This document shows positions 19,050 through 47,376 of a stretch of DNA of 48,321 bases, one piece after another. Each line of letters opens with the position of its first letter. Within the stretch, counting starts at the first letter, position 1. Below the pieces are notes generated by a model. It searched no databases. It was not told where the DNA came from and saw nothing but the letters and a program-made list of their open reading frames with translations. The position numbers and the translations under genes were made by a program. The DNA is taken from NCBI GenBank assembly GCA_025456175.1, contig JALOLC010000015.1, positions 1 through 48,321 on the forward strand. The letters are read 5' to 3'. This stretch comes from Acidobacteriota bacterium (lineage in GTDB: Bacteria > Acidobacteriota > Aminicenantia > UBA2199).

Positions 19050-19065
19050 TTTTCTGTCTCCTTGC

Positions 19066-20598: not shown

Positions 20599-20709
20599 GA
20601 AAACCTCCTCTGTGGCTGCGGGGAACTTTTCCTGCAAGAATCCCGCAGATTGTTTAGACGTTTTTCCCGCAAAAAAAGTTCCGTTCCGGGGAGAAAAAAG
20701 CGATTTTAG

Positions 20710-24600: not shown

Positions 24601-24627
24601 AGCTCGCTCCCGACGCAAAGCGCTGGG

Positions 24628-26062: not shown

Positions 26063-26371
26063 ATGAGGAAAATCGTACTGGCCCTGCTGCTGGCGCTGTT
26101 GCTGCTCGTTCCCCGCACCTTCAAGGCCTCGGAGCTGGAGCAGAACCCCGACGGCGCTGTTTCGCCCCGCTATGACGAGGCCGCCCCGCCGCAGAATCCG
26201 TCCGCCCTGCAGGCCAACGGCTACCCCGAGAGCGATGACGATATCTTCTCCTCCGGCTACGAGCGCGAAATGCTGTCCCGGCGCTTCTTTCAGAAGGCCC
26301 TGCCGCCGCTGAAGCCGAGGGAGAAGATCATCTGGGCATTCAAAACCTCCGGCGCCGGCATCCTGCTATGA
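26063..26371 (+). CDS. Small secreted protein of unknown function, translationally coupled to the sensor kinase
   Basis: Internal ATG with signal peptide MRKIVLALLLALLLLVP. 102 aa, acidic and Pro-rich. Its stop codon overlaps the kinase ATG (ATGA). Confidence 0.5.
   Translation: MRKIVLALLLALLLLVPRTFKASELEQNPDGAVSPRYDEAAPPQNPSALQANGYPESDDDIFSSGYEREMLSRRFFQKALPPLKPREKIIWAFKTSGAGILL

Positions 26372-29123: not shown

Positions 29124-29127
<4 letters not shown>
26368..29127 (+). CDS. Multi-pass membrane sensor histidine kinase (N-terminal extracytoplasmic module, ~8 TM, GAF/PAS-like, HisKA, HATPase_c)
   Basis: 919 aa. H-box AHEINTPLTGISSY. ATPase boxes DNGHGI and GTGLGLAIV. A GAF-like segment VGIVAMGRK...LALSVENAFLY. 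A PDZ-like GDILLAVN segment lies near the N-terminus (weak call). Confidence 0.85.
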
Positions 29128-30472
<1,345 letters not shown>

Positions 30473-30476
<4 letters not shown>

Positions 30477-31210
30477 ATGAAATGAAGCTGATGAAGTTTC
30501 TCCAGGACTGCGGGCTGGCCAGCCGGCGCGATATCCGCCAGTCGATCCACGCCGGCCGCTTCCGGGTCAGTGGCCGAGTCGTCACCGACCCCAATTTCCC
30601 GGTGCGCCCCCAGCGCGACGCCATCCACATGGACGGCAAGCCCCTGCGCCTTGCCCCCCGGCCCAAGAGCTACTTCATCCTCAACAAGCCGACCGGCGTG
30701 GTCTCCACCCTGGCCGACCCCGAGGGACGGCCGACGATCCGCGACTTCATCGCCCGCATCCGCGAGCGGGTTTACCCGGTCGGGCGCCTCGACTTCCACT
30801 CCGACGGGCTCATGCTGCTGACCAACGACGGCGCCCTGGCCGACTTCATCCTGGCGGCGCGCAACGCCGTTCCCAAGACCTACCTGCTGAAGATCAAGGG
30901 GGCCCTGGGCGAAGCGGCGCGCAAGAAGCTGGAGCGGGGCTTCGTCTTGGAGGGCGAGCGGCTGAACCCCTTCGCAATCGAGGAGATGAGCACCACCGGC
31001 AGCGGCAACTCCTGGCTGCGCGTGACCATCACCGAGGGCAAGAAGCACATCCTGCGCAAGGCGTTCCTGTACTCCGGCCACCCGGTAGAGAAGCTGCGCC
31101 GCGTGGCCATCGGCAGCCTCACGCTGGGCAAGCTGCCGCTGGGCCATTGGCGCGAGCTGCGCCCCGACGAGATCGTCCGGTTCAAGCACCAGCATCGCTT
31201 CCCTGGATAG
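30473..31210 (+). CDS. rRNA pseudouridine synthase, RsuA/RluB family (S4 domain + catalytic domain)
   Basis: S4-like N-terminus KFLQDCGLASRRDIRQSIHAGRFRV and catalytic motif GRLDFHSDGLMLLTNDG. ATGA overlap with the EBP gene. Confidence 0.85.
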
Positions 31211-31311: not shown

Positions 31312-31340
31312 TTGAATTGCCGCTGCCGCTGTTGTATAAA
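31312..31340 (+). promoter_or_regulatory. Putative sigma-70-type promoter of the tandem paralogs
   Basis: TTGAAT-N17-TATAAA, 72 nt upstream of the GGAGGAG RBS and ATG at 31413. Confidence 0.45.
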
Positions 31341-31412
31341 CAGGCCAGGCTGCGGGCGGGCATCATCGCCCGGCGGATTCATGGGGATGCGGCCCGCCAT
31401 GGAGGAGTTTGC

Positions 31413-32942
31413 ATGTCATTGCGCCAACTGTTCATCGTCTGCATTGCGCTGCCCGTGTTTTCCGTTTGCGGCGCCGGGACCGGCCAGCAGGACGAGGCCA
31501 GCGGCGAGCTTGTCTTCAGGGCCTTTCGCCAGGGGCTGCCCGTCACCGGCCTGAAGGCGGAGGATCTCCGCCTGCGCATCGACGGGCGTGAGCAGCCCGT
31601 CGCCGCCTTGAGCGAAGCGAGTCGGCGCCTCGGCGCCGGGACCGCTCCGCGCCTGGTCGCCCTGCTGGTGAACGTCGCCGACGCCAATCTGGACCTGACG
31701 CCGGGGATCGAGTTCCTGGTGACGAAATTCCTGCGCGCCGGCGACCAACTGCTGTTCTGCTCCAACAATTTTTTCCTGAGCACGCACGTGGTGAGCGACC
31801 TGGCGGCGGAGAAGGCGCGCCTGCAGCAGATCATCAGCCTGGAAAAGAGGAAATTCCAGGCGCTCTACCAGGCCATGCGCTTCCAATTGAGCGACCTGCT
31901 CAACCGCACCGGGCGCATGATCGACGGACAGACCTCCGAGGAGGTCGGCTTCGCGACCCCCGAATGGAACCGCCAGGGGGTCTATCCCGAGGCCATCCGG
32001 CGCAACTTCATCCATATCTTCACCCAGACCGCCCAGTCGTACAAGAAGTTCTTCCTGCAGCTCGACGATGAGAAGATGCGGAGCCTGGCCGCCGCCTGCT
32101 CGGGTTGGCAGCAGGACAAGTTGGTTTTCGTCCTCTACGAATGCCCCGGGTTCTTCGCGCCCGAGCCGACCTCCTACATGGCCAGCTACCTGGCGCCCTC
32201 GGAGATGTTCAAGAAGCTCCACGAGGAGCTGTACGTGGCGCCGGCAAGCCAGGGGGAAACGTACGGCCGGCAGTTCGCCCGGCGCGGCACGACCTGGCAC
32301 AGCCTGCTGTTGACCCCGGAGGACCGCATCCCCCTCGAGGTCAGCTCGGAGACCGTCACCTTGCGCCTCGACCGCCGCCGCATCGCTTCGTTGGGCCAGG
32401 AACTGCTCCCCCAGCTCAGCCGCCAGACCGGCGGCATCGTCAGCGAATCCAGCAACTTCACCGAGTTCTTCACCCTTCTCTCCTCCCGTGAGGAGGCTTT
32501 CTACCGCTTGGACTTTGCGCGGCAGCCGGAAGCCCCGGGCCGGGAGATCCGCCTGGAAACGGCGGCGGCGAGCGAGTTGATCTACGACGACCGGCCCGGC
32601 CCGGCCGCCATGGCCTCGGCAACGGGAGAGCAAGCCGCGCCGCTGCTGCGCATCGCCGGCATGGAGGTCGGCAAGCAAAAGCTGAACGTCATGCTCGACG
32701 GAACGGCGCCTCTGGTCAGCGTCAACATCCAGCTGACCGACAAGCAGGTCAACCAGCACCTCAACCAGAGCAGCGAAATCTTTCTGGGCGGCGCCGGCAA
32801 GAAGCTCGTCTTTTCGCTGCCCAAACTCGGACGGGGCGTGTACGATCTGGTCGTCGAAGCCGTCAACACCGCCGGCGGGGAAAACGACATCGTCGTCAGG
32901 CGCTTGCAGGTGGACAAGTCGGGCTGGAGTTTCGAATTTTGA
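31413..32942 (+). CDS. Secreted VWFA-related-domain-like protein, paralog 1 (function unknown)
   Basis: The start follows GGAGGAG, with signal peptide MSLRQLFIVCIALPVFSVCGAG. N-terminal FRAFRQGLPVTGLKAEDLRLRIDGREQPV, a VWA-like core lacking DxSxS, QTGGIV, and a C-terminal Ig-like GVYDLVVEAVN segment. This resembles TIGR03436-type proteins (from memory). Confidence 0.6.
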   Translation: MSLRQLFIVCIALPVFSVCGAGTGQQDEASGELVFRAFRQGLPVTGLKAEDLRLRIDGREQPVAALSEASRRLGAGTAPRLVALLVNVADANLDLTPGIEFLVTKFLRAGDQLLFCSNNFFLSTHVVSDLAAEKARLQQIISLEKRKFQALYQAMRFQLSDLLNRTGRMIDGQTSEEVGFATPEWNRQGVYPEAIRRNFIHIFTQTAQSYKKFFLQLDDEKMRSLAAACSGWQQDKLVFVLYECPGFFAPEPTSYMASYLAPSEMFKKLHEELYVAPASQGETYGRQFARRGTTWHSLLLTPEDRIPLEVSSETVTLRLDRRRIASLGQELLPQLSRQTGGIVSESSNFTEFFTLLSSREEAFYRLDFARQPEAPGREIRLETAAASELIYDDRPGPAAMASATGEQAAPLLRIAGMEVGKQKLNVMLDGTAPLVSVNIQLTDKQVNQHLNQSSEIFLGGAGKKLVFSLPKLGRGVYDLVVEAVNTAGGENDIVVRRLQVDKSGWSFEF

Positions 32943-33022
32943 TGGGCACTCCTTTTCCTGAAGCCGGCGCTCGGTCCGCGACCCGTCTGTCGACAGCGGG
33001 AAAATCCGTCATGGAGGGTAAC

Positions 33023-34570
33023 ATGATGAAGAATCCAAAAACCGGCGGGCGTTTGTTCCTGATCGGCCTGCTTCTCGGCGGCTCACTCCTCGCCGCCGCC
33101 GACGATACGCTGGAGTTTCGCGCCTGGCGCGACGGCAAACCGCTCTCCGGCCTGCAGGCGCAGGACATGAAGCTGAGTGTCAACGGCAACGAACGCCAGG
33201 TCAGCGGTTTGGCTGAAGTGCGCCACAAGCTGGCCGGCAGCGATGCGGCGCCGCCGCGTCTCGTCACCCTCCTCTTCAACCTCAGCGATTACAAGTTGGA
33301 TCTGGATCCGGCCGTCGATTTCATCTTCGCCAGCGTGCTGCGGCCGAACGACCGGCTGTTGGTGCGCAGCAACAATTTCTCGCTCGCTGACCACGCGGTG
33401 TCGTCGCTGGCAAGCGAGAAGAAGCGCTTGCGGCAGATCCTGGATTTCGAGAAGCGGAAATACAACGTGCTCTACCAGTCCGTGCGCTTCCAGCTCACCG
33501 ACCTGCTCAATTCCACCGCGCGCCTGATGAGCGGGCAGGCCTCCGACGGCGGGTTCGCCGAGCCGGATGCCGGGAACCAGCAGGGGGTGTACCCGGAGGC
33601 CATCCGGCGCAATTTCATCCATGTCATCGTGCAAACGGTCCAGGCCTACAAGAAGTTCTTCCTCAACATGGATGAAAGTCAGCTCCGCCGCCTGGCCGAG
33701 TATCTCCGCTTCCAGGACGTGGAGAAATGGGGGTTTGTCTTTTTTGAGCGCCCCAATTTCTTCATCCCCGAGCCGCAGTCGCTGCTGGCCGGTTACCTCT
33801 CGCCCTCGGAATTGTTCCAAAAAATGCACCAGGAATTCCATGGGACCGACAGCCTGAACGACGCCGGCATCGGCAAGTCCTTCATCGGCAGCGGCACCTG
33901 GTCGACGATGCTGCTGACGCCGACCGATCGCATCCCGCTGGCGGTGGCTTCCGAAAAGGGCACCCTGCGCCTGGACCGCTCCAGGATCGCTTCCGCGGGC
34001 GAGCGCGTTTTCCCGCAGATCAGCCGCAGCACCGGCGGCATCGTCATGGACGGCAACCAGTTCGATGGTTTTTTCGCCAAGGTGGCGGGCAGCGAGGACC
34101 TGTTCTACCGCCTGTCGTTTGCCGCCGATCCCGCGTCGCCGTTCCGCAGCGTGGCCCTGACCGCGACAGTGCCGTGCGAGCTTGTTTATGACGATCAAAG
34201 GCGCCCGGCGCGCCCGGCGCGCCCCGTTGCGACAGGCCCGATGCCCGCGGCGCCGCAAATCGCCGGAGTGGAGGTCAAGGAAAAGGGCGTGCAAATCAAA
34301 ATGAGCGCCCAGCCGGCCCCGGCCTCCGGCAGACAAGCGCCAAGGATATTCATCGGCGTGCAGCTGTTTGACGGCAAGATGAACATGGTGTTCAACAAGA
34401 CCGTTGAAAGCGACGCCGCCGCCATGGAAACGGCCGGCTTGGAAGTCTTGCTGCCGGCGCTGGCCAAGGGGGTCTACGATCTCGTCATCGAGGCGACGGA
34501 TGCGGTCACGCGCAAAAACGATCTGGCCCTCTTCTCACTCACCGTTTCCAAGAAGGGAATGCAATTATAA
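33023..34570 (+). CDS. Secreted VWFA-related-domain-like protein, paralog 2 (function unknown)
   Basis: The start follows GGAGGG, with signal peptide MMKNPKTGGRLFLIGLLLGGSLLAA. It is collinear with paralog 1, sharing runs such as QGVYPEAIRRNFIH, LLTP.DRIPL, TGGIV and GVYDLV. Confidence 0.6.
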   Translation: MMKNPKTGGRLFLIGLLLGGSLLAAADDTLEFRAWRDGKPLSGLQAQDMKLSVNGNERQVSGLAEVRHKLAGSDAAPPRLVTLLFNLSDYKLDLDPAVDFIFASVLRPNDRLLVRSNNFSLADHAVSSLASEKKRLRQILDFEKRKYNVLYQSVRFQLTDLLNSTARLMSGQASDGGFAEPDAGNQQGVYPEAIRRNFIHVIVQTVQAYKKFFLNMDESQLRRLAEYLRFQDVEKWGFVFFERPNFFIPEPQSLLAGYLSPSELFQKMHQEFHGTDSLNDAGIGKSFIGSGTWSTMLLTPTDRIPLAVASEKGTLRLDRSRIASAGERVFPQISRSTGGIVMDGNQFDGFFAKVAGSEDLFYRLSFAADPASPFRSVALTATVPCELVYDDQRRPARPARPVATGPMPAAPQIAGVEVKEKGVQIKMSAQPAPASGRQAPRIFIGVQLFDGKMNMVFNKTVESDAAAMETAGLEVLLPALAKGVYDLVIEATDAVTRKNDLALFSLTVSKKGMQL

Positions 34571-34825
34571 CCATTCCCGGCATGTTTCCCCGCCCCAAGT
34601 CTCCCTGATTTCCATCGCGGCGCGAGGTTGGCTCTGTTTATGCTTGTGAACTGCGGAAAAGCAAAAAACATTGGCGTACAAAATATTGAATTTCGGATTC
34701 AAAAAATTGAAGCCATCGTAAAAAAAGCCGATCCAACGTCCAGGACATGGAATTTCGGCAATCCTCCATGCCCGACTGCAAAGCATTTTCGGAGATATCT
34801 CGTTTTCACGCCGACTCCGGCTTAT

Positions 34826-34841
34826 TGGCATCATTCTTGCA
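34826..34841 (+). promoter_or_regulatory. Candidate sigma-54 (-24/-12) promoter upstream of the OMP gene
   Basis: TGGCATCATTCTTGCA has GG-N10-GC spacing and TTGCA at -12. It lies 120 nt upstream of ATG 34961, inside a 390-bp AT-rich spacer. Confidence 0.6.
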
Positions 34842-34960
34842 TAAAATTAAAAGGGAAACATTAAAATGAGAAAAACAAAATGCAAGGAGGTGATTGTCGA
34901 AAGGAGTGATCTTCGCCGCGTTGGCGGTGGTTTGAAAGAAAAAAAAGGAGGAATGAATCA

Positions 34961-37711
34961 ATGAAAAGGAAATGGACGTTGTTTCTCGCGCTTATCATCC
35001 TCGTGGCCACATGGGGCTTTGCCCAGCAGAAGGGCGGCACCATTTCCGGCCGAGTGGTGGAAACCGGCGGCGAGCCGCTGCCCGGCGTTTCCGTCATGCT
35101 GACCGGCTCGGCCATTCAGGGTGAGAAGACCACGATCACCAACGACAGGGGCGCCTACCGCTTCGCGGAAGTGCCGGTTGGCGGTGACTACCAGCTCGTC
35201 TTCACCCTCGAGGGCTTTGGCCGGCTGACCAACAAGAACGTCACCGTGGCCCTTGGCAAGGAGACGGTCATCGCCACGACCATGCAGCTGCTCACGGTCC
35301 AGGAAGAGATCCTGGTCATGGGCAAGCCGATGATCATCGACCCCAAGTCGAGCGTGGCCCAGGTCAACATCACCAAGGACACGATCAACACCCTGGCCAA
35401 CGACCGCCAGTACCAGACGATCATGGGCCTGATGCCCGGCGCCATTGATGGCAACAACCCGTTCATGCTGGGCGGCGGCAGCGCCGACAACATCTACAAC
35501 TTCGACGGCATGGACAACACCGACCCCATGACCAAGACCTGGTCGACGGCCATGAACTTCGACAACTTCGAAGAGATCCAGGTGGTGACCGCCGGCGCCC
35601 CGGCCGAATACGGCCGCGGCACGGGCGCGGTGATCAACGTGGTCACGCGCTCCGGCTCCAATGCCATCTCGGGCACGGCGCGCTTCACCTATTCCAAGAT
35701 CGACTGGATGGCCAAGAAGCTGGGCAACCGCTATTCCTTCTCCGACGCCACCCACTTCACCAACGAAGCGCGGCCGAGCGTCAACATCGGCTTCCCGATC
35801 TTCAAGGACAAGCTGTGGGCCTTCGCCTCCTACGAGCGGCGCAACAAGTGGATCGAGCAGACCACCTACGCCGACTTCGCCGACACGGTGGACAAGGTGC
35901 CCGGCGTCCACGAAAAGTCCTATTACGAGGGCTACTATCTCTCGGGCAAGCTGACCTTCAAGCTGAACAAGCGCAATACCCTGTTCGCCCAGTACTCGAA
36001 GGACCCGATCGAGATCCCCAACCTCTACGGATACCTGGGCTACACCTATTGCCCGCCCGAGATCGACACCGTGCGCTTCCAGGGCGGCTGGAACATGAGC
36101 GGCGAGTGGAACTCGATCCTGGGCAACAACACCAATCTCATCCTGCGCGCCAACATCAAGCGCAACCAGCTGAACAACGAGCCCAAGGACCTGGAGGGCA
36201 TCGCCTACTACGCCAACGGCGTCTACTGGGGCGCCTCCTTCACCACCTACTTCACCAACCGCTACTACAACAACTATGGCCTCATCCTCAATCAGTTCCT
36301 CTCCACCGGCTTCGGCACCCATGACTTCAAGATGGGCGTCGAGCTCCTCGACATCAACCTCTCGCGTTACAGCCAGTCCTACCCGACCAACGAGTACATC
36401 ACCTTCCTGTCCGACGGCGTGACCACCAACAAGCGCTACGTCTACACCGACCGCCCGCAGGACAAATACACCAAGGATTCGTTCAACGACCTCTGGACCA
36501 TCTACCTGCAGGACAAGTGGGAAGTGGCGCGCAACCTGACCCTCAACCTGGGCCTGCGCGCCGAGTCGGGCAAGTGGATCAAGCACGACAAGGAAGTGAT
36601 GTTCAACTGGGGCTTCGGCAAGATGCTGGCCCCGCGCGTCGGCGTCGCCTACAACTTCAAGGGGCACAAGTTCAGCGGCTCCTGGGGCACCTATTACGAC
36701 CTGATGGACGACACGCTGGTCAACAACTTCCAGCCCAACATCTTCAAGGCCTCCTATGACGAGTACAACGGCCAGTACTTCGGCAACGCCGACTGGAAGT
36801 ACTACCGCACCGTCACCTTCGGCTCCGCCTCCTCGGCGACGATCGACCTCGACACCATCAAGCCCATCAAGATGACCGAGTGGTCGCTCAACTACGAGTA
36901 CGCCCTCAGCGACACCATCGGCATCGGCGCCGAGTACCTGAACCGCTCCTGGAAGGACAAGTACGACGACTACGATTATGACCTGAACGGCCAGTGGCAC
37001 TACGCCGGCGCCACCTATCCCGGCAACTCGCCTTTCAAGGACTACAAGCTGCCCGACGGCTCGCAGATGCTGCCCGATTGGGGCTCGACCTTCAAGAAGT
37101 ACGACGCCCTGATCTTCACCCTGAAAAAGAACCTGGGCAACGACAAGTACCAGTTCATGGCCTCCTACACCTACTCGCACCTCAAGGGCTACCAGGGCGC
37201 CGAGGGCGCCAGCACCTTCGCCGACAACAGCTACTCCGACTTCTACGCCTTCGGCTACCTGGGCAACGACATCCGCCACATGTTCAAGCTCAACGCCAGC
37301 GTCTTCGCCCCCTGGGGCATCGTGGTCGGCGCCAACTTCTACTACCTGTCCGGCTCGCCTTACGGGGAATCCGGCTCGGCGGTCTCCCCCAACGGCCTCA
37401 CCAGCTACACCGTGCGCCTCACCGCTCCCGACGCCTTCCGCTACCCGCCCACCTCGCGGCTCGACCTGAACTTCGAAAAGCGCTTCACGATCTGGAAGGA
37501 CGTCAAGGTCGCCCCCTTCATCATGTTCTTCAACATCCTCAACAACCAGGTCGAAGTCGTCCGCGGCAACAGCGTCGGCTCCATCAAGCTCAAGGACACC
37601 TCGGACCCGCTGAAGGGCTACACCGTCACCTCCCCCAGCTCCACCTACAACACCTACACCCGCTGGTTCCCGCCCATGTCCTTCTACCTCGGAGTCAAGA
37701 TCGACTTCTAA
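34961..37711 (+). CDS. Oar-like outer-membrane beta-barrel (CarboxypepD_reg domain + TonB-dependent-receptor-like plug/barrel)
   Basis: AAGGAGGAA RBS and signal peptide MKRKWTLFLALIILVATWGFA. N-terminal GTISGRVVETGGEPLPGVSVML...NDRGAYRF. A long Tyr/Gly/Asn-rich barrel region ends in the aromatic terminus ...YLGVKIDF. Confidence 0.8.
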   Translation: MKRKWTLFLALIILVATWGFAQQKGGTISGRVVETGGEPLPGVSVMLTGSAIQGEKTTITNDRGAYRFAEVPVGGDYQLVFTLEGFGRLTNKNVTVALGKETVIATTMQLLTVQEEILVMGKPMIIDPKSSVAQVNITKDTINTLANDRQYQTIMGLMPGAIDGNNPFMLGGGSADNIYNFDGMDNTDPMTKTWSTAMNFDNFEEIQVVTAGAPAEYGRGTGAVINVVTRSGSNAISGTARFTYSKIDWMAKKLGNRYSFSDATHFTNEARPSVNIGFPIFKDKLWAFASYERRNKWIEQTTYADFADTVDKVPGVHEKSYYEGYYLSGKLTFKLNKRNTLFAQYSKDPIEIPNLYGYLGYTYCPPEIDTVRFQGGWNMSGEWNSILGNNTNLILRANIKRNQLNNEPKDLEGIAYYANGVYWGASFTTYFTNRYYNNYGLILNQFLSTGFGTHDFKMGVELLDINLSRYSQSYPTNEYITFLSDGVTTNKRYVYTDRPQDKYTKDSFNDLWTIYLQDKWEVARNLTLNLGLRAESGKWIKHDKEVMFNWGFGKMLAPRVGVAYNFKGHKFSGSWGTYYDLMDDTLVNNFQPNIFKASYDEYNGQYFGNADWKYYRTVTFGSASSATIDLDTIKPIKMTEWSLNYEYALSDTIGIGAEYLNRSWKDKYDDYDYDLNGQWHYAGATYPGNSPFKDYKLPDGSQMLPDWGSTFKKYDALIFTLKKNLGNDKYQFMASYTYSHLKGYQGAEGASTFADNSYSDFYAFGYLGNDIRHMFKLNASVFAPWGIVVGANFYYLSGSPYGESGSAVSPNGLTSYTVRLTAPDAFRYPPTSRLDLNFEKRFTIWKDVKVAPFIMFFNILNNQVEVVRGNSVGSIKLKDTSDPLKGYTVTSPSSTYNTYTRWFPPMSFYLGVKIDF

Positions 37712-37735
37712 GCGTTCAGCGAACCATAACCAAAA

Positions 37736-37765
37736 GGGGCAGCCTTCGGGCTGCCCTTTTTTTTT
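37736..37765. terminator. Bidirectional intrinsic terminator shared by the convergent OMP gene and sulfatase-like operon
   Basis: AAAA-GGGGCAGCC-TTCG-GGCTGCCC-TTTTTTTTT, 25 nt after the OMP stop codon. Confidence 0.75.
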
Positions 37766-37857
37766 GCGCCGCCGGGGCATTGGGCGCAGGGATTTCTCCA
37801 GGAGCGGGAAACGCATGGATTGCCGGGCAACCCTGCCCGGCGGCCAAAACGGCAGGA

Positions 37858-39972
37858 TCAGATCCGGGCGCGCAGGGCGACGACCAGGCGCTCGGCCTCG
37901 GGCCGGCGCGGGTCGTCGGCTGGGGCCTCGCGCAGGAAGAACTCCACCTTTTCCAGGGCTCCGCGCCAGTCGCCCTGGCGGGCCATGAGGGCGGCGTAGT
38001 CCATGGCCGCCGCCGGGACGGCCGGCAGGACGCGCTCGAAGCATTCCGCCGCGGCGGCGAACTCGCCGAGCTGGCCGAAGGTGACGCCCAGGCCATGCAG
38101 CAGGTCGCTGTCGTTGGGGAAGCGCGGCCTCAGCGCCGAGAGGACCCGATGCGCTTCGGCGAAGCGTTTGCCGGCGACGAGCAGCTTGGCCAGCCACTTG
38201 CCGATGGCCAGCTGCGATTCGTCGCGCCGGAACAGCTCCTGCAGGTGAACGATGGCCGCTGCGCCATCGCCCCGGCGCTCGGCTATTTCGGCTTGCAGCT
38301 GCAGGCGCTGCATCTCCTGGGTGGCGGGTAGTTCCCTCTCCTCCTCCAGCAGCCGGCTGGCCTCGTCCAGGCGGTTCAGGCGGATGAGGAGGGTCGCCAG
38401 GCCGATGCGGATATTGCCGTCGTTCGGAAAGCGCCGGCGCGCCTCCGCGAACAGCGAGCGGGCTTCATTCCCGCGGCCCAGGGTATGGTAGAGGTTGGCC
38501 AGCGTCAGGTAGACGGGGGGAAAGGAGAGGCCCATGTCGATCGCCTGCTTGTAGCGCTCGGCCGCCTCTTGCCGGTGCCCGAGCTGCTCGGCCACGACGC
38601 CGCGGTTGAACTCGAGAAAGGCCGGCGCCATCTGCTTGGGATCGGGCCGCTCGCCCGTGGGCGCCGCTCCTTGCGTGCTGGCCAGATAGCCGAGAGAGGC
38701 CAGGGCCTGCCAGTCGCCGTCTCCTTCCCGGCGCTTGCCGTCGAGGCGGCGTTTGAGCTGCTTCTCATGTCCGGCCAGACTCGTCCTCAGTTGTCGGGCC
38801 AGGAGCGGTTTCCTTTGCAGCAGGTTGTCGCGCTCGCCGGGATCAACGGCCAGGTCATACAGCTCGGCCCGGGGCAGATGGATGTACTTGTGCCCCTCCT
38901 GGATGATGCCGGTCAACGGCGCGCACTGCAGGTTTTCGCTGGAGAACAGGCTTTCAAAATAGATCGGCCGCGCCGCCATGTCGCGGCCGCGGACAAGCGG
39001 GGCCAAGGAAACGCCCTGCATCCCGCCCGGAACAGGGATCCCGGCCATCTCCAAAATGGTCGGCGCCACGTCGGCCAGCGAGACGGGCCGGTCGCTGCGG
39101 CGGCCGCGGCCCACGCCGGCCTTGACCAGCAGCGGCACGTGGAGCGTTTCCTGGTAGCAGAAGAGCTGGTGGCCGATCTCGCCGTGCTCGGCGAAGGCTT
39201 CGCCGTGGTCGCCGGCCACGACGACCAGCGTGCGTTGCCAGCGCTTTCCGGCGCGCAGGCGGTCGAGGATCACTCCCAGCTGCTCGTCCATGAAGGCGAT
39301 CTCGCCGGCGTAGGGCGCGTCGGCGAAGCGGCTGCGCTGCGGCTCGGGCGGATCGTAGGGCAGGTGGGGGTCGAAAAAATGGAGCCAGCAGAACCAGCGG
39401 CTCTCGCCGGCCTGGTCGAGCCAGCGCTGGCAGGCGGCGGCGGTGCGCCCGGCGCGGCGCTCGATCCACTGGCTGCTGCCGGGCTGGATGGCATCGGTCA
39501 GGGTGTCGTCGAAGTGGTCGAACCCCTGGTCGAGGCCGAAGCGCGCCGTGACCGTGAACGAGGAGACGAAGGCCGCTGTCCGATACCCCTGTCGTTTCAG
39601 GATCTCGGCCAGGGTATCCACGGCCGCCGGCAATACGTACGTGTCGTTGTTGCGCACGCCGTGGCCGGGCGGCTGGAGCCCGGTCATGATCGTGCAGTGC
39701 GAGGGCAGGGTCAGCGGCACCGGCGCGTGGGCCTGGGAAAACGTGGTGCCCTCCGTTGCCAGGCGGGCGAAGGCCGGAGTGCGGCCGGCGTCGCCGACAT
39801 GATCGGCGCGGGTGGTGTCGAGGGTGACGAGCAGGATGGCATCGTACTCGGGCCGGGGAGAGCGCAGCAGGAAATAGAGGCCTGCGGCCAGGAGCAACGC
39901 AACGACCGGGGCCGCGATCCAGGCGAGGCGGGGACGGGCAAAAGGGGCTTTGGGTTGGGCGGCCTTCTTCAT
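37858..39972 (-). CDS. Sulfatase-like (alkaline-phosphatase superfamily) hydrolase/transferase fused to C-terminal TPR repeats
   Basis: N-terminal TM helix, ILLVTLDTTRADHVG, and TLPSHCTIMTG in place of the arylsulfatase CxPxR. Also VVAGDHGE. The C-terminal ~250 aa are TPR-like (LANLYHTLGRGNEARSLF...). Confidence 0.8.
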   Translation of the reverse strand: MKKAAQPKAPFARPRLAWIAAPVVALLLAAGLYFLLRSPRPEYDAILLVTLDTTRADHVGDAGRTPAFARLATEGTTFSQAHAPVPLTLPSHCTIMTGLQPPGHGVRNNDTYVLPAAVDTLAEILKRQGYRTAAFVSSFTVTARFGLDQGFDHFDDTLTDAIQPGSSQWIERRAGRTAAACQRWLDQAGESRWFCWLHFFDPHLPYDPPEPQRSRFADAPYAGEIAFMDEQLGVILDRLRAGKRWQRTLVVVAGDHGEAFAEHGEIGHQLFCYQETLHVPLLVKAGVGRGRRSDRPVSLADVAPTILEMAGIPVPGGMQGVSLAPLVRGRDMAARPIYFESLFSSENLQCAPLTGIIQEGHKYIHLPRAELYDLAVDPGERDNLLQRKPLLARQLRTSLAGHEKQLKRRLDGKRREGDGDWQALASLGYLASTQGAAPTGERPDPKQMAPAFLEFNRGVVAEQLGHRQEAAERYKQAIDMGLSFPPVYLTLANLYHTLGRGNEARSLFAEARRRFPNDGNIRIGLATLLIRLNRLDEASRLLEEERELPATQEMQRLQLQAEIAERRGDGAAAIVHLQELFRRDESQLAIGKWLAKLLVAGKRFAEAHRVLSALRPRFPNDSDLLHGLGVTFGQLGEFAAAAECFERVLPAVPAAAMDYAALMARQGDWRGALEKVEFFLREAPADDPRRPEAERLVVALRARI

Positions 39973-39987
39973 GGCTGCCGCCAGCGG

Positions 39988-40926
39988 CTATTTCTTTTCC
40001 AGGAGCTGGATGATGCTGCGCACCGAGTCGGCTTTTTCGCCAGCGGGCTCGAGCTCGAGGAATTTTTTCATGCTGGACAGGGCCTCGTTGGTGCGGCCCT
40101 TGTTCAAATAGGCCATGCCCAGCTGGTAGAAGCCGTCGGCCAGCTTGGCATCCTTCTGCACGGCCTCGGCCAGCGCGGCGATGGCGCTGTCCATGTCGCC
40201 GGCGTTGAAGGCCTTGATGCCCTCGTTGTACTTGTCGATGGCCGTGAAGCCCCCCTTCTGCTGGGCGAGCAGGGTGAATTTCTCCGACTCCTTGGCGTCG
40301 CCCAGCTTTTCATAGATGGCGGCCAGCAGCCGGTAGGTCTCGGGGTAGTCGGGGCTGAGCTCGGCCACCTTCTTCAGCGGCGCGATGGCTTCCTGGTACT
40401 TGGCCTGCAGGAAAAAGACATGCCCCAACTCGAGGTGGGCCTGGTGCATGTCGGGTTTGCTTTGTATCGCCTCCTGCAGCAGGGGCACGGCGCCGGCCAG
40501 ATCGTCTTTCTTGATCAGCAGGACGGCCTTGTTGAAGCGGTTGACGGCCTGGAGATCGGGGTCGCTCGACTCGGCAAGCAGGATCGCTTCATCCGGGGTC
40601 AGGAGCTTGAACTCCTCTTCGGCGATCTCGAAGGCTGGCACCTTGACCTGGCGGCGCTGTCCCTGGTAGCCGGCGAGCTCGACCGTGATGATGTAGACGT
40701 GGTTGTCCAGGGTGCCGTGGGTGGCGACGCCTTTCTTGTCGGTCGTAAGCTTGCCGGTATAGGTGGATTGGGTGTCCTGCAGGGTGATCACGGCCCCGGC
40801 CAGCGGCTGGCCCTGGGAATTGAGGACAGTGAGCTTCATTTTGCTCTTGATGGCCCCCGTCAGCGGCAGACCGGCCCAAACGCCGATCAGCGCGGCAACG
40901 ACGATGGCAATGCGAAATGATTTCAT
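39988..40926 (-). CDS. Secreted CarboxypepD_reg-like domain + TPR repeat protein
   Basis: Signal peptide MKSFRIAIVVAALIGVWA and an N-terminal beta-sandwich-like KLTVLNSQGQPLAGAVITLQD...DKKGVATH. It has multiple TPR repeats (LGHVFFLQAKYQEAIAPL, LGMAYLNKGRTNEALSSM). Confidence 0.7.
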   Translation of the reverse strand: MKSFRIAIVVAALIGVWAGLPLTGAIKSKMKLTVLNSQGQPLAGAVITLQDTQSTYTGKLTTDKKGVATHGTLDNHVYIITVELAGYQGQRRQVKVPAFEIAEEEFKLLTPDEAILLAESSDPDLQAVNRFNKAVLLIKKDDLAGAVPLLQEAIQSKPDMHQAHLELGHVFFLQAKYQEAIAPLKKVAELSPDYPETYRLLAAIYEKLGDAKESEKFTLLAQQKGGFTAIDKYNEGIKAFNAGDMDSAIAALAEAVQKDAKLADGFYQLGMAYLNKGRTNEALSSMKKFLELEPAGEKADSVRSIIQLLEKK

Positions 40927-40944
40927 GGCGCGATACCTCCGGGC

Positions 40945-41853
40945 CTATTTTACGGCAAACACCCTGGACTTGGCAAGCCGCCGGCCGCCGGCCAGGTCGG
41001 CGATGGTCAGCGACACCATGTAGCGGCCCGAGGGCAGCTCGCCCAGCGCGAGCGGCACCTCGATTCTCTCCGGCAGCGCAAGGGGCGACGAATCCCGGGC
41101 GACGGCGATGACGTGGATGCGATCGAGCCGGCGCACCTCCTTCTTCGTCTTCATCTCGCGGATGCGCAGGCGCATGTCCAGGCTGGCCCGGTAGCCGGAG
41201 CTGTCCTCGCTGAAGGTCAGATGGCCGCGGCCGATGGTCAGCCGCAGTTCCCAGCCTCCCGTTGCCGCGGGCACGACGACGATCCTGCCGTCGATGTGGC
41301 TGGCGCGGCCGCCGGTCTCGAGGATCTTGAGCATCTCCTCGCGCACGAGCATCTGGTGCTCGAGGTTCAGGTAATGGAGCTGGAAGTCCTCGTTTTCCCG
41401 CGGATCGACGAACACGACCGGGAAGCCCGGATAGTGCCAGATCTCGCAAGTCACGCCCAGGGGGTTGCCGGCGCCGCGCCGTTCGAATTTCTCGCGCAGG
41501 TCGGGGGGGCCGAGGACGATGTAGGTCTTGCCCCGGTCGCTCAGCCAGCCCGGCCGGCCAACGGTGAAGAGGCGGGTGGCCTCCTCGATGCGCCGCAGGT
41601 GCTCGGTCTTGAATTCGTTCTCCTCGGTGCCGGGGTCGGGGTCGCGCCGCTGCCAGAACTCGGCGATGAAGGCCGGCCGCTCATCCTTGGGCATCTCCAG
41701 GTAGAGGCGCCTCTCCGTGCCGCTGATGATGTAGCGCACGACGGAGAGGAACTCGCGATCCTCGGCGTCCAGGCGCTTCTCGAGGCGGTAGGTGCGGCAG
41801 GCGGGTAAGGCCAGGACCGCCAGCAGAGCCCAGCCCAACAGGCGGCGGCTCAT
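40945..41853 (-). CDS. GWxTD-domain lipoprotein (GWLSD variant)
   Basis: The internal ATG overlaps the upstream stop codon (ATGA). MSRRLLGWALLAVLALPAC has a lipobox. FWQRRDPDPGTEENEFKTEHLRRIEEA...GRPGWLSDRGKTYIVLGPPD matches the GWxTD domain pattern. The C-terminus has an Ig-like SGRYMVSLTIAD segment. Confidence 0.75.
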   Translation of the reverse strand: MSRRLLGWALLAVLALPACRTYRLEKRLDAEDREFLSVVRYIISGTERRLYLEMPKDERPAFIAEFWQRRDPDPGTEENEFKTEHLRRIEEATRLFTVGRPGWLSDRGKTYIVLGPPDLREKFERRGAGNPLGVTCEIWHYPGFPVVFVDPRENEDFQLHYLNLEHQMLVREEMLKILETGGRASHIDGRIVVVPAATGGWELRLTIGRGHLTFSEDSSGYRASLDMRLRIREMKTKKEVRRLDRIHVIAVARDSSPLALPERIEVPLALGELPSGRYMVSLTIADLAGGRRLAKSRVFAVK

Positions 41854-43943
41854 TTCTGCACCTGCTGCAGCAGCTCGCGGATCTGAGGCTGATCGGGGTT
41901 CTTGGCCAGTGAACGCTCCCAGGCCTGGCGCGCCTCGGCCCGTTCGCCCAGCTGCAGGTGGCAGCGGCCGATCTCGTTCCAGACGGCTGCGATCTCGCCG
42001 AAAGTGCCGATGATCTTCTGGAACACGACCAGCGCCGGCCGCCACTCCCGCAAATCCAGGTGCTTCTGGCCGAGAAGCTGCAGCGCTTCCTGGACGGGCT
42101 TTTCCGCCTCGGTCAGGGGGGCCAGGATCGACTCCAGGCGCCCATACTCCTTCAGCCCGTAGAGCAGGCGGGCGAAGGCGAGCGCGTACGGCCCCACGTT
42201 GGGAGCCTGGCTGTAGGCCGATTCCAGGCGCGCCCGGGCGCGGGCAGCGTCGCCGGCGTTCAGGTACTGGGTGCCCAGGATGAAGTCGATCATGGTCGTC
42301 CCGAGGGCGCGCTGCGTCTTGAAGTAGACCTGGGGCCGGTTGAGCCGCGCCATGGGGGTGATCATGAAATCGCGCTCGCCAGTCAGCCAGTTCTCGCCCC
42401 CGGGATTGAGCAGGGCCACCTGCAGCTGGTAATAGTCGGGATTCATCGCCTGCAGCGGAATCTCCAGCAGCAGGTTGCCGCCGCCCCGCAGGGCGTCGTT
42501 CAGCAGCTGCGCCTTTTCCCAGACCATCTCCCGGGGCTGGATGCGCCAGACCCTCACCTGGAGCCGGAGGCGCTCCCTGAGGCCCTCCTCGCCGCCAAAC
42601 AGCTGCGCGAAGAACCAGAGGCTGTCCTGGCGCGCAAAGACGGAATCGGCGGCGACGAGCAGCTGCCCGGTGCCGACGTGAAAGGGGGTCAGGGCCAGCG
42701 GCGCCTCGCTGTCGCGCTTCAGCTCGTAGCCCAGAAGCGGGGCGGTCAGGAAGGGCGGGTGATCGGCCGCGGGGACAAGCAGGTCCTTTTCAACCGAGGT
42801 GAACTCCTTGGAGGTTTCATTGCGCAGCAGCAGCTGCAGGTGGTACTGGCCGGGGATGAGCGGGAAGGCGTCGAGAAGGACAACGGCGCTGTCGTTGATG
42901 CGCTGGACCTGCTCCTCGTCGAAGCGCAGCTCGTAGGACTTGGTGAATTGATGGATTTCCGCGCCGGCGGGGGTGGTGACGCGGCCGTCCAGCTTGAGCA
43001 CGGTCGAGTAGACGCCTTCGTAGAAGTTGACCGACAGCCGGTCGATCTGGATCAGGGCGTAGACCAGTGCCTGGCCGGAGGGGGTGAAGAACAGCTGCAC
43101 CTGGCTGCGGCCCTCAATATAGCGGGTCGAGTAGTCGATCGTCACCGTGTCCTTGTACTGCAGGAAGCGCTCGGCGTAGAGGTCCTTCACCTGCCGGGTG
43201 GGGACCAGGGCGATGTTCTGCAGCAGCAATTCGGAGGACATGGTGGGGCGGCCCTCGGCCATGCCCTCGCCGGGGATGAGCGAGAAGGCGTTGGCCGCCA
43301 GGGCGGTGTTGTACTGGTTGATGGTGTCGTAGATGTTCTGGAAATCCTCGATCCTGCCGTCGAAGCCGACGATCAGGTTGTGCGGCCCGTCGCTGATCGG
43401 CGAATAGGTGACGTACTCGCCCCGGCCGCGCTTGTCGTAAAAAAGCAGGTTGAAGGCCGGCGGCAGGCCGAAGCGCTCCATGCCTTGGTAGGACCAGACC
43501 TCGCAGGGATACATCTTGCCGTAGCCGCTGTAGTTCTGGATGTAGATCGGCTCGCCCAGCAGGATGTAGATGCGGCCGCGATCGGTCTTCCAGCCCGGGG
43601 TCGAGGTGCCGCGGCCATAGATGCGGTTGGCGTGCTCGAAGCGGCGGAGATGCTCGCTGCGCAACTCATTCGCTTCGGTTCCGGGGGTCGGGTCGCGCTG
43701 GCGCCAGAAGGCGGCGATGAAGGCGTCGCGCTCGCTGTCGTTCGCCAGCTGCAGGAAGGCCTTGCGTTCGCGCGGGGAAATGATGTACTTGACCTCCTGG
43801 TTGAGCCAGGCGTCGTAGGCCGGGGACATGCGGACGGCATCGGCCCCGAGCAGCGAGAGGCTGAGAACGGCCGCGGCCGTCCATAGTCGCGGCAGAACGG
43901 GCCTGCCGGTCACGGCCGGAGCCTCGGGGCGCGGCCAAGGCAT
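41850..43943 (-). CDS. GWxTD-domain protein with C-terminal TPR region
   Basis: FWRQRDPTPGTEANELRSEHLRRFEHA...TPGWKTDRGRIYILLGEP is the GWxTD signature. It has a hydrophobic N-terminus and C-terminal TPR-like helices. Confidence 0.75.
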   Translation of the reverse strand: MPWPRPEAPAVTGRPVLPRLWTAAAVLSLSLLGADAVRMSPAYDAWLNQEVKYIISPRERKAFLQLANDSERDAFIAAFWRQRDPTPGTEANELRSEHLRRFEHANRIYGRGTSTPGWKTDRGRIYILLGEPIYIQNYSGYGKMYPCEVWSYQGMERFGLPPAFNLLFYDKRGRGEYVTYSPISDGPHNLIVGFDGRIEDFQNIYDTINQYNTALAANAFSLIPGEGMAEGRPTMSSELLLQNIALVPTRQVKDLYAERFLQYKDTVTIDYSTRYIEGRSQVQLFFTPSGQALVYALIQIDRLSVNFYEGVYSTVLKLDGRVTTPAGAEIHQFTKSYELRFDEEQVQRINDSAVVLLDAFPLIPGQYHLQLLLRNETSKEFTSVEKDLLVPAADHPPFLTAPLLGYELKRDSEAPLALTPFHVGTGQLLVAADSVFARQDSLWFFAQLFGGEEGLRERLRLQVRVWRIQPREMVWEKAQLLNDALRGGGNLLLEIPLQAMNPDYYQLQVALLNPGGENWLTGERDFMITPMARLNRPQVYFKTQRALGTTMIDFILGTQYLNAGDAARARARLESAYSQAPNVGPYALAFARLLYGLKEYGRLESILAPLTEAEKPVQEALQLLGQKHLDLREWRPALVVFQKIIGTFGEIAAVWNEIGRCHLQLGERAEARQAWERSLAKNPDQPQIRELLQQVQK

Positions 43944-43971
43944 TTCGCCGCGCCGCAGTTCCAGTTCAGCT

Positions 43972-45012
43972 TCATTTCTTTTTCGCGGGAGCCTTGGCGG
44001 CCTTGGCCGCAGCCTGCTTCTGCTGCTGGATCAGGGTCCCGAGCTTTTCCAGGAAAACCCTGTACTTGGCAATATCCGGCGACTGGGGGTAGAAGGTGAC
44101 CAGCTCGGTGTAGGTCTTCTGCGCCAGCTCGTAATTCTTTTCGTAGGCATAGAGGTTGCCCAGCATGACGTGGGCGTTCTCGATCGGGACCTTGAGCTCG
44201 ATCGCCTTGAGGAAATAGGGCTCGATCTCCCGGGCCTTGGCCGCCAGCTCATCCTCCTTCATGGCGCCGACCTTGGGCTCGAGCTCGAGGTACAGGTTGG
44301 TGCCGACGAAGAACCACGCCTGGGGCAGAAACTCGGACGTCCTGTCGCCCGCTTTGTAGAAATCGAGGAAGCGCAGGAAATACTTGTTGGACTCGCCGTA
44401 GCGGGAGAGCTGGTGATGATTCATCCCCTGGAAATAGATGATGTTGGAAAACGTCGCGAAGCTCTCCTGCTCGAGGTCGCCGAAGCCCAGGCACTTGTCG
44501 AACGCGTCGATGGCCTCGCTGAATTTCCTCAGATAATAGAAATTGACGCCGCAAACGTAGGCGGCGTTGATCGCCATGGTCTTGTCGCTGCTTTCGATCC
44601 CGGGCCGGGCCAGCAGCCGCTGCAGGTAGCCGTTGGACTTCTCATATTCCTGGGCGCCGTTGGCCTTGACGCCGAGATCGTATAGGGACTTGTGCAGCGC
44701 CTGGATGGCATGATCGTAGTCGGGCTGGTTCTTGACGGCGTTCTCGAAGAAACCCACGGCTTCCTCCATCTTGCCCGTCTGCCAGTAGATGACGCCGATG
44801 TTGAAGTAGGGAATGGCGTACTCGGGCTCGAGCTCGATGACCTTCTGGAAGAGCGCAACGGCTTCCTCGGCCTTTTTGGCCTTGATGGCGGCAAAGGCCT
44901 CTTTCATGACCTTCTGCGCCTTGCTGGAGATCTTTTTCTCGGCGGAGCCTGACAGGGCCAGGGAAAACGAGACAAGGACGATCGTCAGTATGACGAGGAA
45001 ACTCTTTTTCAT
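43972..45012 (-). CDS. Secreted TPR repeat protein (first gene of the minus-strand operon)
   Basis: The start follows GGAGGAG, with signal peptide MKKSFLVILTIVLVSFSLALSGSA. TPR repeats run through the protein (IGVIYWQTGKMEEAVGFF, LGNLYAYEKNYELAQKTY). It has a Lys/Ala-rich tail. Confidence 0.7.
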   Translation of the reverse strand: MKKSFLVILTIVLVSFSLALSGSAEKKISSKAQKVMKEAFAAIKAKKAEEAVALFQKVIELEPEYAIPYFNIGVIYWQTGKMEEAVGFFENAVKNQPDYDHAIQALHKSLYDLGVKANGAQEYEKSNGYLQRLLARPGIESSDKTMAINAAYVCGVNFYYLRKFSEAIDAFDKCLGFGDLEQESFATFSNIIYFQGMNHHQLSRYGESNKYFLRFLDFYKAGDRTSEFLPQAWFFVGTNLYLELEPKVGAMKEDELAAKAREIEPYFLKAIELKVPIENAHVMLGNLYAYEKNYELAQKTYTELVTFYPQSPDIAKYRVFLEKLGTLIQQQKQAAAKAAKAPAKKK

Positions 45013-45039
45013 GCGTGCTCCTCCTTTCGCTACCATTCC

Positions 45040-45060
45040 ATTATAGCAAATTCGCAGCCA
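45040..45060 (-). promoter_or_regulatory. Overlapping candidate sigma-54 (-24/-12) and extended -10 sigma-70 elements upstream of the TPR/GWxTD operon
   Basis: The minus strand reads TGGCTGCGAATTTGCTATAAT. TGGC-N8-TTGCT has GG-N10-GC spacing, and the same bases form TGCTATAAT. The start codon is 28 nt downstream. Confidence 0.45.
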
Positions 45061-45090
45061 AATAAAAAGGGCGGACACAGGGGTCCGCCC
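45061..45090 (-). terminator. Intrinsic terminator downstream of the prolyl oligopeptidase gene
   Basis: The minus strand reads GGGCGGAC-CCCTGT-GTCCGCCC followed by TTTTTATT. Confidence 0.7.
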
Positions 45091-47280: not shown

Positions 47281-47376
47281 GCAAAGCCTCCTCGTTTTAA
47301 TCGCAATAGTTCGGAATGGACATTGTACGAAATTTTTGATATTTTGGTTCATTCAATGGATGGGTCACGAGTTTTT

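Follow-up and report, generated by a model that had tools for sequence, protein, structure and literature searches.

A recurrent Aminicenantes gene module joining GWxTD proteins to an Oar-class transporter: a possible regulated uptake locus

Introduction

Among the described systems closest to the locus considered here are the Oar-class transporters, whose type member, Oar of Myxococcus xanthus, is required for PopC secretion (PMC6434023), and, by analogy only, the SusC/SusD loci of Bacteroidota. Loci centred on a transporter are a known kind, and the individual domains involved are catalogued. Oar-class transporters and GWxTD proteins both form large families, to which hardly any function has been assigned. 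In this work, we analyse a DNA stretch of 48,321 nucleotides (the window) from an Acidobacteriota bacterium of the lineage Aminicenantia; UBA2199 (assembly GCA_025456175.1, contig JALOLC010000015.1, forward strand), and in it a cluster of eight genes, G1 to G8. Five minus-strand genes of this cluster and a convergent gene for an outer-membrane protein (OMP) of the Oar type form one recurrent, multi-copy, shuffled module, which supplies a first functional context for both families.

Aminicenantes are uncultured and abundant in anoxic sediments and the subsurface, and uptake in these organisms is inferred almost wholly from genomes. As far as can be told, the link between GWxTD proteins and an Oar-class transporter, the enzyme with a conserved T-L-P-S-H motif and the sigma-54/TYCAA-N4-TTGRA signature described below are new.

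Results

A Recurrent Gene Module

The gene calls are based on the letters themselves and a program-made list of open reading frames (ORFs) with translations. The cluster comprises the following features:

31413-32942, plus strand: G1, secreted VWA-like protein without the metal-ion-dependent adhesion site (MIDAS), a remote TIGR03436 relative
33011/33023-34570, plus strand: G2, tandem paralog of G1; start codon ambiguous (33011, 33023 or 33026)
34961-37711, plus strand: G3, 916 aa, with signal peptide, CarboxypepD_reg N-terminal extension, plug-like region and beta-barrel; similar to Oar-class TonB-dependent transporters
37732-37765: shared intrinsic terminator (A-tract, 13-bp GC-rich stem, T-tract) between convergent G3 and G4
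37858-39972, minus strand: G4, N-terminal membrane anchor, sulfatase-fold domain (alkaline-phosphatase superfamily) and C-terminal TPR; optional part of the module
39988-40926, minus strand: G5, secreted or anchored CarboxypepD_reg and TPR protein; core part
40945-41853, minus strand: G6, lipoprotein with GWxTD and, at the C-terminus, a beta-sandwich-like region; core part
41850-43943, minus strand: G7, secreted protein with GWxTD, two beta-sandwich domains and TPR; anchor gene of the module
43972-45012, minus strand: G8, secreted protein with TPR only; opens the operon and is a sporadic part of the module

An earlier note on this DNA had described eight consecutive genes with export or anchor N-termini, tightly packed on the minus strand and converging on a single terminator, and this description holds. 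A hydrophobic N-terminal segment is present in all eight proteins (12-residue Kyte-Doolittle maximum 2.05-3.09). Among the eight, only G6 has a lipobox-like Cys (LPAC); 16/38 G6 homologs carry a lipobox-pattern Cys, and several others show an SSC or FC Cys by eye. As read from the coordinates, the gaps in the minus-strand operon are 28, 18 and 15 nt, and G7 and G6 share an ATGA overlap. The terminator stem (37732-37761) folds with -22.7 kcal/mol (z = -2.25) and has a T-run on one side and an A-tract on the other; its minus-strand form was recovered by a consensus scan. Rfam and tRNA scans of the window gave no match, and hence no riboswitch upstream of G3. The domain content proposed for the OMP gene and the five minus-strand genes was recovered by Pfam and NCBIfam matches at curated cut-offs. 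Of the hidden Markov model (HMM) searches that the note had called for, those for GWxTD, CarboxypepD_reg, sulfatase and TPR gave matches, and TIGR03436 remained below its cut-off.

Conservation was followed in a G7-anchored set, consisting of the best 80 loci of 536 tblastn-confirmed stretches encoding G7 relatives (one genome per species, 69 assemblies). Synteny was determined by BLAST of the window proteins against all ORFs of the 80 loci, and the 48 loci with at least 6 kb of sequence downstream of the G7 homolog were taken as informative. A word-index search with G7 retrieved 1143 proteins at E <= 1e-5. Among the 120 matches listed, nearly all are full-length with ~40% identity, and homologs that bear a source name are nearly all from Aminicenantes. 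In the 48 informative loci, G7 is accompanied by an Oar-like OMP of the G3 type in 30, by the G5 type in 23, by the G6 type (one to three tandem copies where present) in 21 and by the G4 type in 17. The commonest layout, G7>G6>G5>[G4]G3<, is the window's own arrangement. Alternative layouts were seen as well, both co-directional (G4>G5>G3>G7>) and split (L003): order and orientation are shuffled among the loci, yet the module genes remain neighbours. When the neighbours were clustered, the G5 type was the second most recurrent family (35 loci), TPR-only genes recurred (12/100 cluster neighbours), and no other recurrent family was found besides those of the module. Local housekeeping genes near the module are shared only among closely related genomes.

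The module also occurs in several copies per genome. Within the best 80 loci, at least 10 assemblies have two or three (three in CAYFXE01, two in nine others), and loci L061 and L077 each contain two G7 genes. In the closest relatives, L005 and L006 (89-96% identity), the whole arrangement is kept, including the RluA-like gene, G1 and G2. Locus L007 (74% identity) has one VWA-like gene and a G8 ortholog with 84% identity, and G4 is absent. Thus, the neighbourhood check across Aminicenantes that had been suggested shows that the module recurs. Of the claim that all eight genes belong to one system, the part concerning the five minus-strand genes and the OMP stands, since these recur together; the VWA-like paralogs appear not to belong to it.

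Proteins of the Module

G3 matches CarboxypepD_reg PF13620 with 60.7 bits (cut-off 32.3, aa 27-109) and the barrel family OMP_b-brl_4 PF25183 with 96.4 bits (cut-off 30), in agreement with the predicted CarboxypepD_reg and beta-barrel architecture of this 916-aa protein; PF00593 stays at 17.9 bits, under its cut-off of 27. After the CarboxypepD_reg extension, a TonB-box-like strand, EEILVMG, can be seen by eye. A sequence search of the PDB with G3 gave no match to any solved transporter, and BLASTP produced no alignment between the CarboxypepD_reg domains of G5 and G3. By its architecture, G3 looks like an Oar-class TonB-dependent-transporter-like protein.

The GWxTD family (TIGR04514 / PF20094) is matched by G6 with 95.6 bits and by G7 with 112.7 bits against a cut-off of 28; G7 also matches TPR. 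In the motif GWKTDRGR, W118, G123 and R124 are invariant in 70 sequences, and G117, T120, D121 and R122 are conserved in at least 90%. Many Trp, Arg, Asp, Glu and Tyr residues of the GWxTD domain are invariant, and a role in ligand binding or in catalysis would be compatible with them. For G7, the AlphaFold model (AF2; predicted local distance difference test score, pLDDT, 78) has a helix-rich alpha/beta N-terminal region, two beta-sandwiches at 278-541 and TPR at 549-696. With the full model, Foldseek returned only TPR and tandem beta-sandwich matches (factor XIII barrels, RbmA, arrestin-like; template-modelling score ~0.13), and a PDB sequence search with the G7 profile matched the TPR part and nothing else. 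G7 was considered as a transglutaminase and rejected, since it has no conserved Cys/His/Asp triad. G5 matches CarboxypepD_reg PF13620 with 40.2 bits together with TPR families, and G8 matches TPR families in Pfam. The named TPR systems PrsT, GltE, Tgl, PilW, LapB, BamD, YbgF, PorW and MamA were rejected: their NCBIfam matches are far below cut-off and confined to TPR. As a separate observation, a strand motif, L-P-x-L/G-x-x-G-x-Y-x-L-x-V-E/x, is common to G1 (469-490), the C-termini of G2 and G6, and G7 (360-375). It sits in the C-terminal beta-sandwich and aligns to the glycosyl-hydrolase accessory domain 3nqh (E 4.7e-4). A common 'PxGxYxL' beta-sandwich of the G1/G2 family and G7 reached only 8% probability in a profile-profile comparison and is not claimed.

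G4 matches Sulfatase PF00884 with 131.7 bits (cut-off 25) as well as TPR, and the NPP (nucleotide pyrophosphatase/phosphodiesterase) family PF01663 with 50.1 bits, limited to aa 47-112. The C/S-x-P-x-R formylglycine signature of sulfatases does not occur in G4, which has T-L-P-S-H at the aligned position. In PDB alignments, T88 of T88-L-P-S-H92 coincides with the sulfatase Cys/Ser (formylglycine) position and H92 with the Arg position, as had been pointed out for TLPSH in place of CxPxR. The doubt then expressed about textbook sulfatase chemistry appears well founded, because Thr and His instead of Cys and Arg are conserved in the orthologs. In a set of G4 and 29 cluster-linked orthologs (30-40% identity), T/S-x-P-S/A-H is present in 30/30 sequences, with Thr in 29 and Ser in one at the nucleophile position. 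D52, R55, D57, H92, D201, H256 and H268 are invariant in all 30, while T88, H104, H203 and D255 are found in 29/30; an N-terminal hydrophobic anchor segment is likewise present in 30/30. The G4 motif continues from T-x-P-x-H to TG..P..HG and is joined by D...DH metal-ligand motifs. We take T-x-P-x-H...TG..P..HG to be the motif of NPP enzymes, the mapping of G4 ligands onto NPP having been made by motif and not by structure. Two assignments were rejected on the basis of the conserved active site: an S1 sulfatase, since C/S-x-P-x-R is replaced by a conserved T-x-P-S-H, and a dead or degenerate enzyme, since the active-site Thr and the Asp/His ligands are conserved across the set. G4 is presumably an active phosphoesterase or transferase with a Thr nucleophile. 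In metabolic reconstructions, such genes ought to be left out of the sulfatase count. Elsewhere in the window, a second protein of the alkaline-phosphatase superfamily (22498-24618, minus strand, 706 aa, PF01663 over aa 430-629 only) is encoded a few kb upstream of the two-component genes listed below.

Control of the Transporter Gene

The regulatory elements, and the genes found upstream of the cluster by Pfam, are as follows:

34826-34841, plus strand: sigma-54 -24/-12 promoter TGGCATCATTCTTGCA, 120 nt upstream of the G3 ATG
34686-34711, plus strand: overlapping palindromes TTGAA-N7-TTCAA (34686-34702) and TTCAA-N4-TTGAA (34698-34711), candidate site of an enhancer-binding protein (EBP), or upstream activating sequence (UAS)
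45040-45060, minus strand: promoter region of the G8-G4 operon, with an extended -10 sigma-70 box TGCTATAAT (45048-45040) overlapping a sigma-54-like match (45060-45045)
26368-29127, plus strand: sensor histidine kinase, 919 aa (GAF-HisKA-HATPase)
29124-30476, plus strand: NtrC-type sigma-54 activator (REC-AAA+-HTH_8)
30473-31210: RluA-like pseudouridine synthase

Four matches to the strict sigma-54 pattern TGGC-N7-TTGCW were counted in the window, where 1.05 would be expected. Two of the four are intergenic, one of them 120 nt upstream of G3 and the other 33 nt ahead of G8. The G3 element is kept in L005 and is identical in L007 amid a diverged spacer; the palindrome is kept in L007 too. Across 36 G3 homologs, the strict motif is found within 450 bp upstream of 13, compared with 1% of random windows, and the conserved promoter form is TGGCAY-N6-TTGCW. 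At least one strict TYCAA-N4-TTGRA lies 67-141 nt upstream of the sigma-54 motif in 13/17 G3-homolog promoters, with near-variants visible by eye in the rest. Promoter and palindrome are both present in 12/36 homologs, the palindrome background being 1.2%. In 1.25 Mb of sequence there are 29 palindromes, about 16 of them within 500 bp upstream of a G3 homolog. All positive G3 homologs are monocistronic, convergent genes. The single TYCAA-N4-TTGRA of the window is that at 34698-34711, and the palindrome pair is located ~115-140 nt upstream of the G3 -24 element.

Sigma-54 control, which had been suggested for the cluster as a whole, is thus strongly supported for the G3 gene by motif conservation (13/36 homologs, L005 and L007). 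It is not supported for the operon, where the match upstream of G8 overlaps the perfect extended -10 box TGCTATAAT and is not conserved: in L007 the -24 GG reads AG, yet TGCTATAAT is kept, which makes sigma-70 likelier. The partner operon in this genome probably uses a sigma-70 extended -10 promoter. Five G7 homologs (L001 9696, L010 9599, L018 9816, L025 1414, L030 5097) have a strict sigma-54 motif upstream without palindromes, so that the GWxTD operon of some genomes may depend on sigma-54 together with another activator.

The NtrC-type pair lies 4 kb upstream of G3, and the order response regulator-RluA-G1-G2-G3 is kept in L005. In the G7-anchored loci, synteny BLAST with the window regulator gave one weak match, in L019, and none elsewhere. 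Only its proximity makes the adjacent two-component pair a candidate regulator of the G3 promoter. The rpoN gene is not in the window. The first ~480 residues of the histidine kinase (26368-27800) have no Pfam match. The leader between the sigma-54 promoter and the G3 ATG (34842-34963, ~105 nt) contains a second Shine-Dalgarno-like block, AAGGAGGTGA, which both L005 and L007 retain and which is a good distance upstream of the true G3 ribosome-binding site. The leader also holds a short ORF with an ATG at 34867, whose end overlaps the start of G3 by ATGA; its peptide is not conserved in L007.

The VWA-Like Tandem Pair and Other Neighbours

G1 and G2 are 46% identical and share the sequence runs quoted for them earlier, so that their description as tandem paralogs is accurate. 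Their assignment as VWFA-related needs qualification. The direct match falls below the TIGR03436 cut-off of 81.25, with 17 bits for G1 (aa 40-71 only) and no match for G2, and against Pfam neither protein gave any family or a VWA match. The relation is transitive: 42/44 members of the wider G1/G2 family match TIGR03436 at E <= 1e-3 (best 2e-21). Relatives of G1 amount to 5 proteins in a word-index search and to 326 cluster representatives, mostly of 500-550 aa, in an exhaustive profile search. The MIDAS motif DxSxS does not occur: G1 has NVADA, G2 has NLSDY and the family consensus is FVLxFN, the equivalence of positions being based on the strand-then-motif pattern and not on a VWA alignment. 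A profile search of the PDB with the family returned no VWA structure. The earlier doubt over textbook VWA chemistry, raised on the same two motifs, is therefore justified for a whole subfamily without DxSxS.

G1/G2-type genes accompany the cluster in its closest relatives only (L005-L007), and L007 retains only the G2-type copy. By family HMM, members of the family are in or beside 4/80 G7-anchored loci. In the reverse direction, a set of 80 metagenome loci anchored on the family was found with a tighter alignment of a G1/G2-family subgroup; 38 of them span at least 8 kb, and 2/38 adjoin a G7>G6>G5>G3< cluster. The family occurs mostly in tandem arrays of itself, and the recurrent neighbours of its loci are unrelated to the GWxTD module. 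According to a rough estimate that assumes ~ten 10-kb clusters per 4-Mb genome, adjacency to the module is at about chance level. Because of this near-chance adjacency, G1 and G2 are treated as a lineage-specific tandem neighbour that is probably not part of the module, contrary to their proposed membership of the system.

The G1/G2-family arrays (L088-L167, e.g., L095 5730-8807 and L099 6200-8692) usually contain 2-5 tandem paralogs. Nine or ten of the family loci are preceded either by a ~1026-aa protein without a Pfam family or by an 831-aa Sortilin/BNR-repeat protein, and the array with its preceding gene could be a separate conserved unit. The window also contains a Bat-like (Bacteroides aerotolerance type) operon at 12552-16609, made up of VWA_2 (12552-13100), VWA and TPR (12779-14116), BatD (14100-15863) and TPR and SH3 (15860-16609). 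Its first two ORFs overlap in different frames, which could reflect two genes, a frameshift or a sequencing error.

On the far side of the cluster, directly beside G8, is one further gene identified by Pfam:

45157-47352, minus strand: prolyl oligopeptidase

The window is rich in peptidases (863-3388, 17727-20637 and 45157-47352, all on the minus strand), with an S9 family protein, a Tat-signal TldD/PmbA pair and the prolyl oligopeptidase. Peptidases of the S9, S41, M14 and S46 families are found near some related clusters (L003, L063), not recurrently. The acetate kinase gene is broken into two ORFs that overlap out of frame, 24825-25535 (profile 1-139) and 25102-25956 (profile 168-392), which suggests a frameshift, a pseudogene or an assembly error.

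Discussion

Gene content, conservation, copy number, the promoter with its UAS and the conservation of the G4 active site are observed features of the module. The reading to which we lean, tentatively and at somewhat less than an even chance, is that of a locus for regulated, TonB-dependent uptake in which the accessory proteins are novel. The analogy with SusC/SusD, the paralogous expansion and the optional hydrolase point to an envelope-spanning complex that may serve TonB-powered uptake and periplasmic processing of the substrate. The multi-copy, shuffled organisation favours capture and uptake over envelope remodelling; several copies per genome are a pattern typical of substrate-specific uptake loci and not of a single-copy biogenesis machine.

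Protein contacts, transport direction and cargo are what we infer, along the following lines. G3 would be transcribed alone from its sigma-54 promoter, with the activator bound at tandem TYCAA-N4-TTGRA palindromes. At the outer membrane, the GWxTD/beta-sandwich proteins would bind a substrate that is macromolecular or scarce, and the G3 transporter would import the bound substrate with TonB energy. The TPR proteins, with G8 and G5 as scaffolds, would bridge the components. Where present, G4, anchored in the inner membrane, would cleave a phosphoester of the cargo in the periplasm.

Several points weigh against an uptake locus of this kind. The founding Oar member exports a protein and does not import one (PMC6434023). 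The Plug family PF07715 matches G3 (aa 137-222) with 21.6 bits, just under the cut-off of 23.9, and NCBIfam names no family for this protein. TonB, ExbB and ExbD genes are absent from the window, and none are recurrent near related loci. In about a quarter of the informative loci, e.g., those of Saccharicenans, G7 has no module partner within 10 kb. The phosphoester idea has G4 as its sole basis, and G4 is missing from two-thirds of the loci and from L007. A model of the GWxTD domain by itself (pLDDT 83.7) has no significant PDB match (best Foldseek E 0.76). In the literature searched, GWxTD, TIGR04514, TIGR03436 and PF20094 are not mentioned and there is no experimental account of any component. 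A literature search combining Aminicenantes and TonB-dependent likewise returned nothing relevant.

The same genes could make up an export or surface-assembly module, in which the transporter moves a periplasmic protein (the GWxTD proteins or G6) outward, as in the Oar/PopC case, with the TPR proteins as periplasmic chaperones. The type member, Oar, is indeed needed for protein secretion (PMC6434023). No neighbours of G3 are more constant than the genes for the GWxTD proteins, which are exported. TPR proteins are commonly chaperones or pilotins. We nevertheless consider export unlikely: no protease or other obvious cargo is encoded, the paralogous multi-copy loci with a varying number of GWxTD genes fit diversity of substrate binding better, and G4, an optional hydrolase of the periplasm, suggests that material is processed on its way in. 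Transport direction, for its part, cannot be read from sequence. Envelope remodelling or biogenesis, which we regard as quite unlikely, would make G4 a transferase or hydrolase acting on the head group of a lipid, lipopolysaccharide or glycan (LtaS/EptA/YejM-like), with the TPR and GWxTD proteins as its scaffold to the outer membrane. In favour of this, G4 has a membrane anchor and a sulfatase fold with a Thr nucleophile, as do lipid-linked transferases, and it gives weak matches to YejM/LapC and VP1736; sigma-54 regulons often concern the cell exterior. However, G4 is present in just 17/48 loci and absent from the nearest genus-level relative (L007), so it is not a core activity. Moreover, it has one anchor helix compared with the multi-helix lipid-binding domain of those transferases, and multi-copy loci are unusual for biogenesis machines. 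We also take its T-x-P-S-H...TG..P..HG motif to be nearer to NPP than to LtaS/EptA, a comparison of which the PF01663 match is the computed part.

It is very unlikely, in our estimate, that no single system exists and that an independent VWA-like pair, a transporter gene and a TPR/GWxTD operon are merely adjacent. The G1/G2 family is independent, forms its own tandem arrays and adjoins GWxTD clusters in 2/38 loci. G3 and the operon are separate transcription units with different promoters, and this phylum is said to have many genes for Oar-like transporters. Nevertheless, the G3, G5, G6 and G4 types stay beside G7 types across many species despite rearrangement, and sigma-54/UAS signatures are found mainly ahead of G3 genes that are linked to a cluster (~16/29 palindromes). 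Mere adjacency fits G1 and G2 only.

As an extension of the uptake reading, possible but rather doubtful, the GWxTD and CarboxypepD_reg-TPR proteins might be dedicated accessory subunits of Oar-class transporters, with a novel fold and a sigma-54/enhancer switch, and so a counterpart of SusD and surface glycan-binding proteins outside Bacteroidota. If true, Aminicenantes, and possibly other phyla with GWxTD domains, would have a new family of loci for nutrient acquisition. Two conserved features come with the module as well: a variant active site in the sulfatase fold, and a sigma-54 promoter that has an enhancer site. Testable hypotheses follow concerning partner binding, cargo, phosphoesterase activity and the identity of the regulator.

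Comparison with Known Systems

The VWA-like neighbours resemble TIGR03436 proteins in being a secreted family of ~520 aa that forms tandem paralog arrays. They differ in that G1 and G2 are under the cut-off and their whole subfamily is without DxSxS. With the NPP phosphodiesterases and PafA-like phosphatases, G4 shares the Thr nucleophile, the Asp/His ligands and the PF01663 match. In contrast to them, the rest of its domain, including the C-terminal subdomain, scores best as an S1 sulfatase, and the protein is extended by a membrane anchor at the N-terminus and by a TPR domain of 250 aa. The G3 promoter is like those of NtrC-type sigma-54 systems in the canonical spacing of -24 GG and -12 GC, the tandem palindromes ~70-140 bp upstream and the nearby REC-AAA+-HTH_8 activator. 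We know of no description of the TYCAA-N4-TTGRA palindrome with an Oar-class transporter as the target.

G3 itself agrees with Oar in its signal peptide, PF13620 extension, plug-like region and large beta-barrel. Oar, however, has a dedicated Ton system, whereas G3 has no Ton genes nearby, and neither neighbours of the GWxTD, CarboxypepD_reg-TPR and alkaline-phosphatase-like kinds nor sigma-54/UAS control are described for Oar. No SusD-family Pfam match was found in the eight proteins or in 100 cluster neighbours, and the likeness to the SusC/SusD loci is one of analogy: in both cases, a transporter with a CarboxypepD_reg-like domain stands beside lipoproteins, TPR-like partners and an optional hydrolase, in several shuffled copies per genome. 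In contrast to those loci, the partners in the module are GWxTD proteins of unmatched fold, glycoside hydrolases do not recur, and the regulator is of the sigma-54/EBP kind rather than a hybrid two-component or extracytoplasmic function (ECF)/anti-sigma system.

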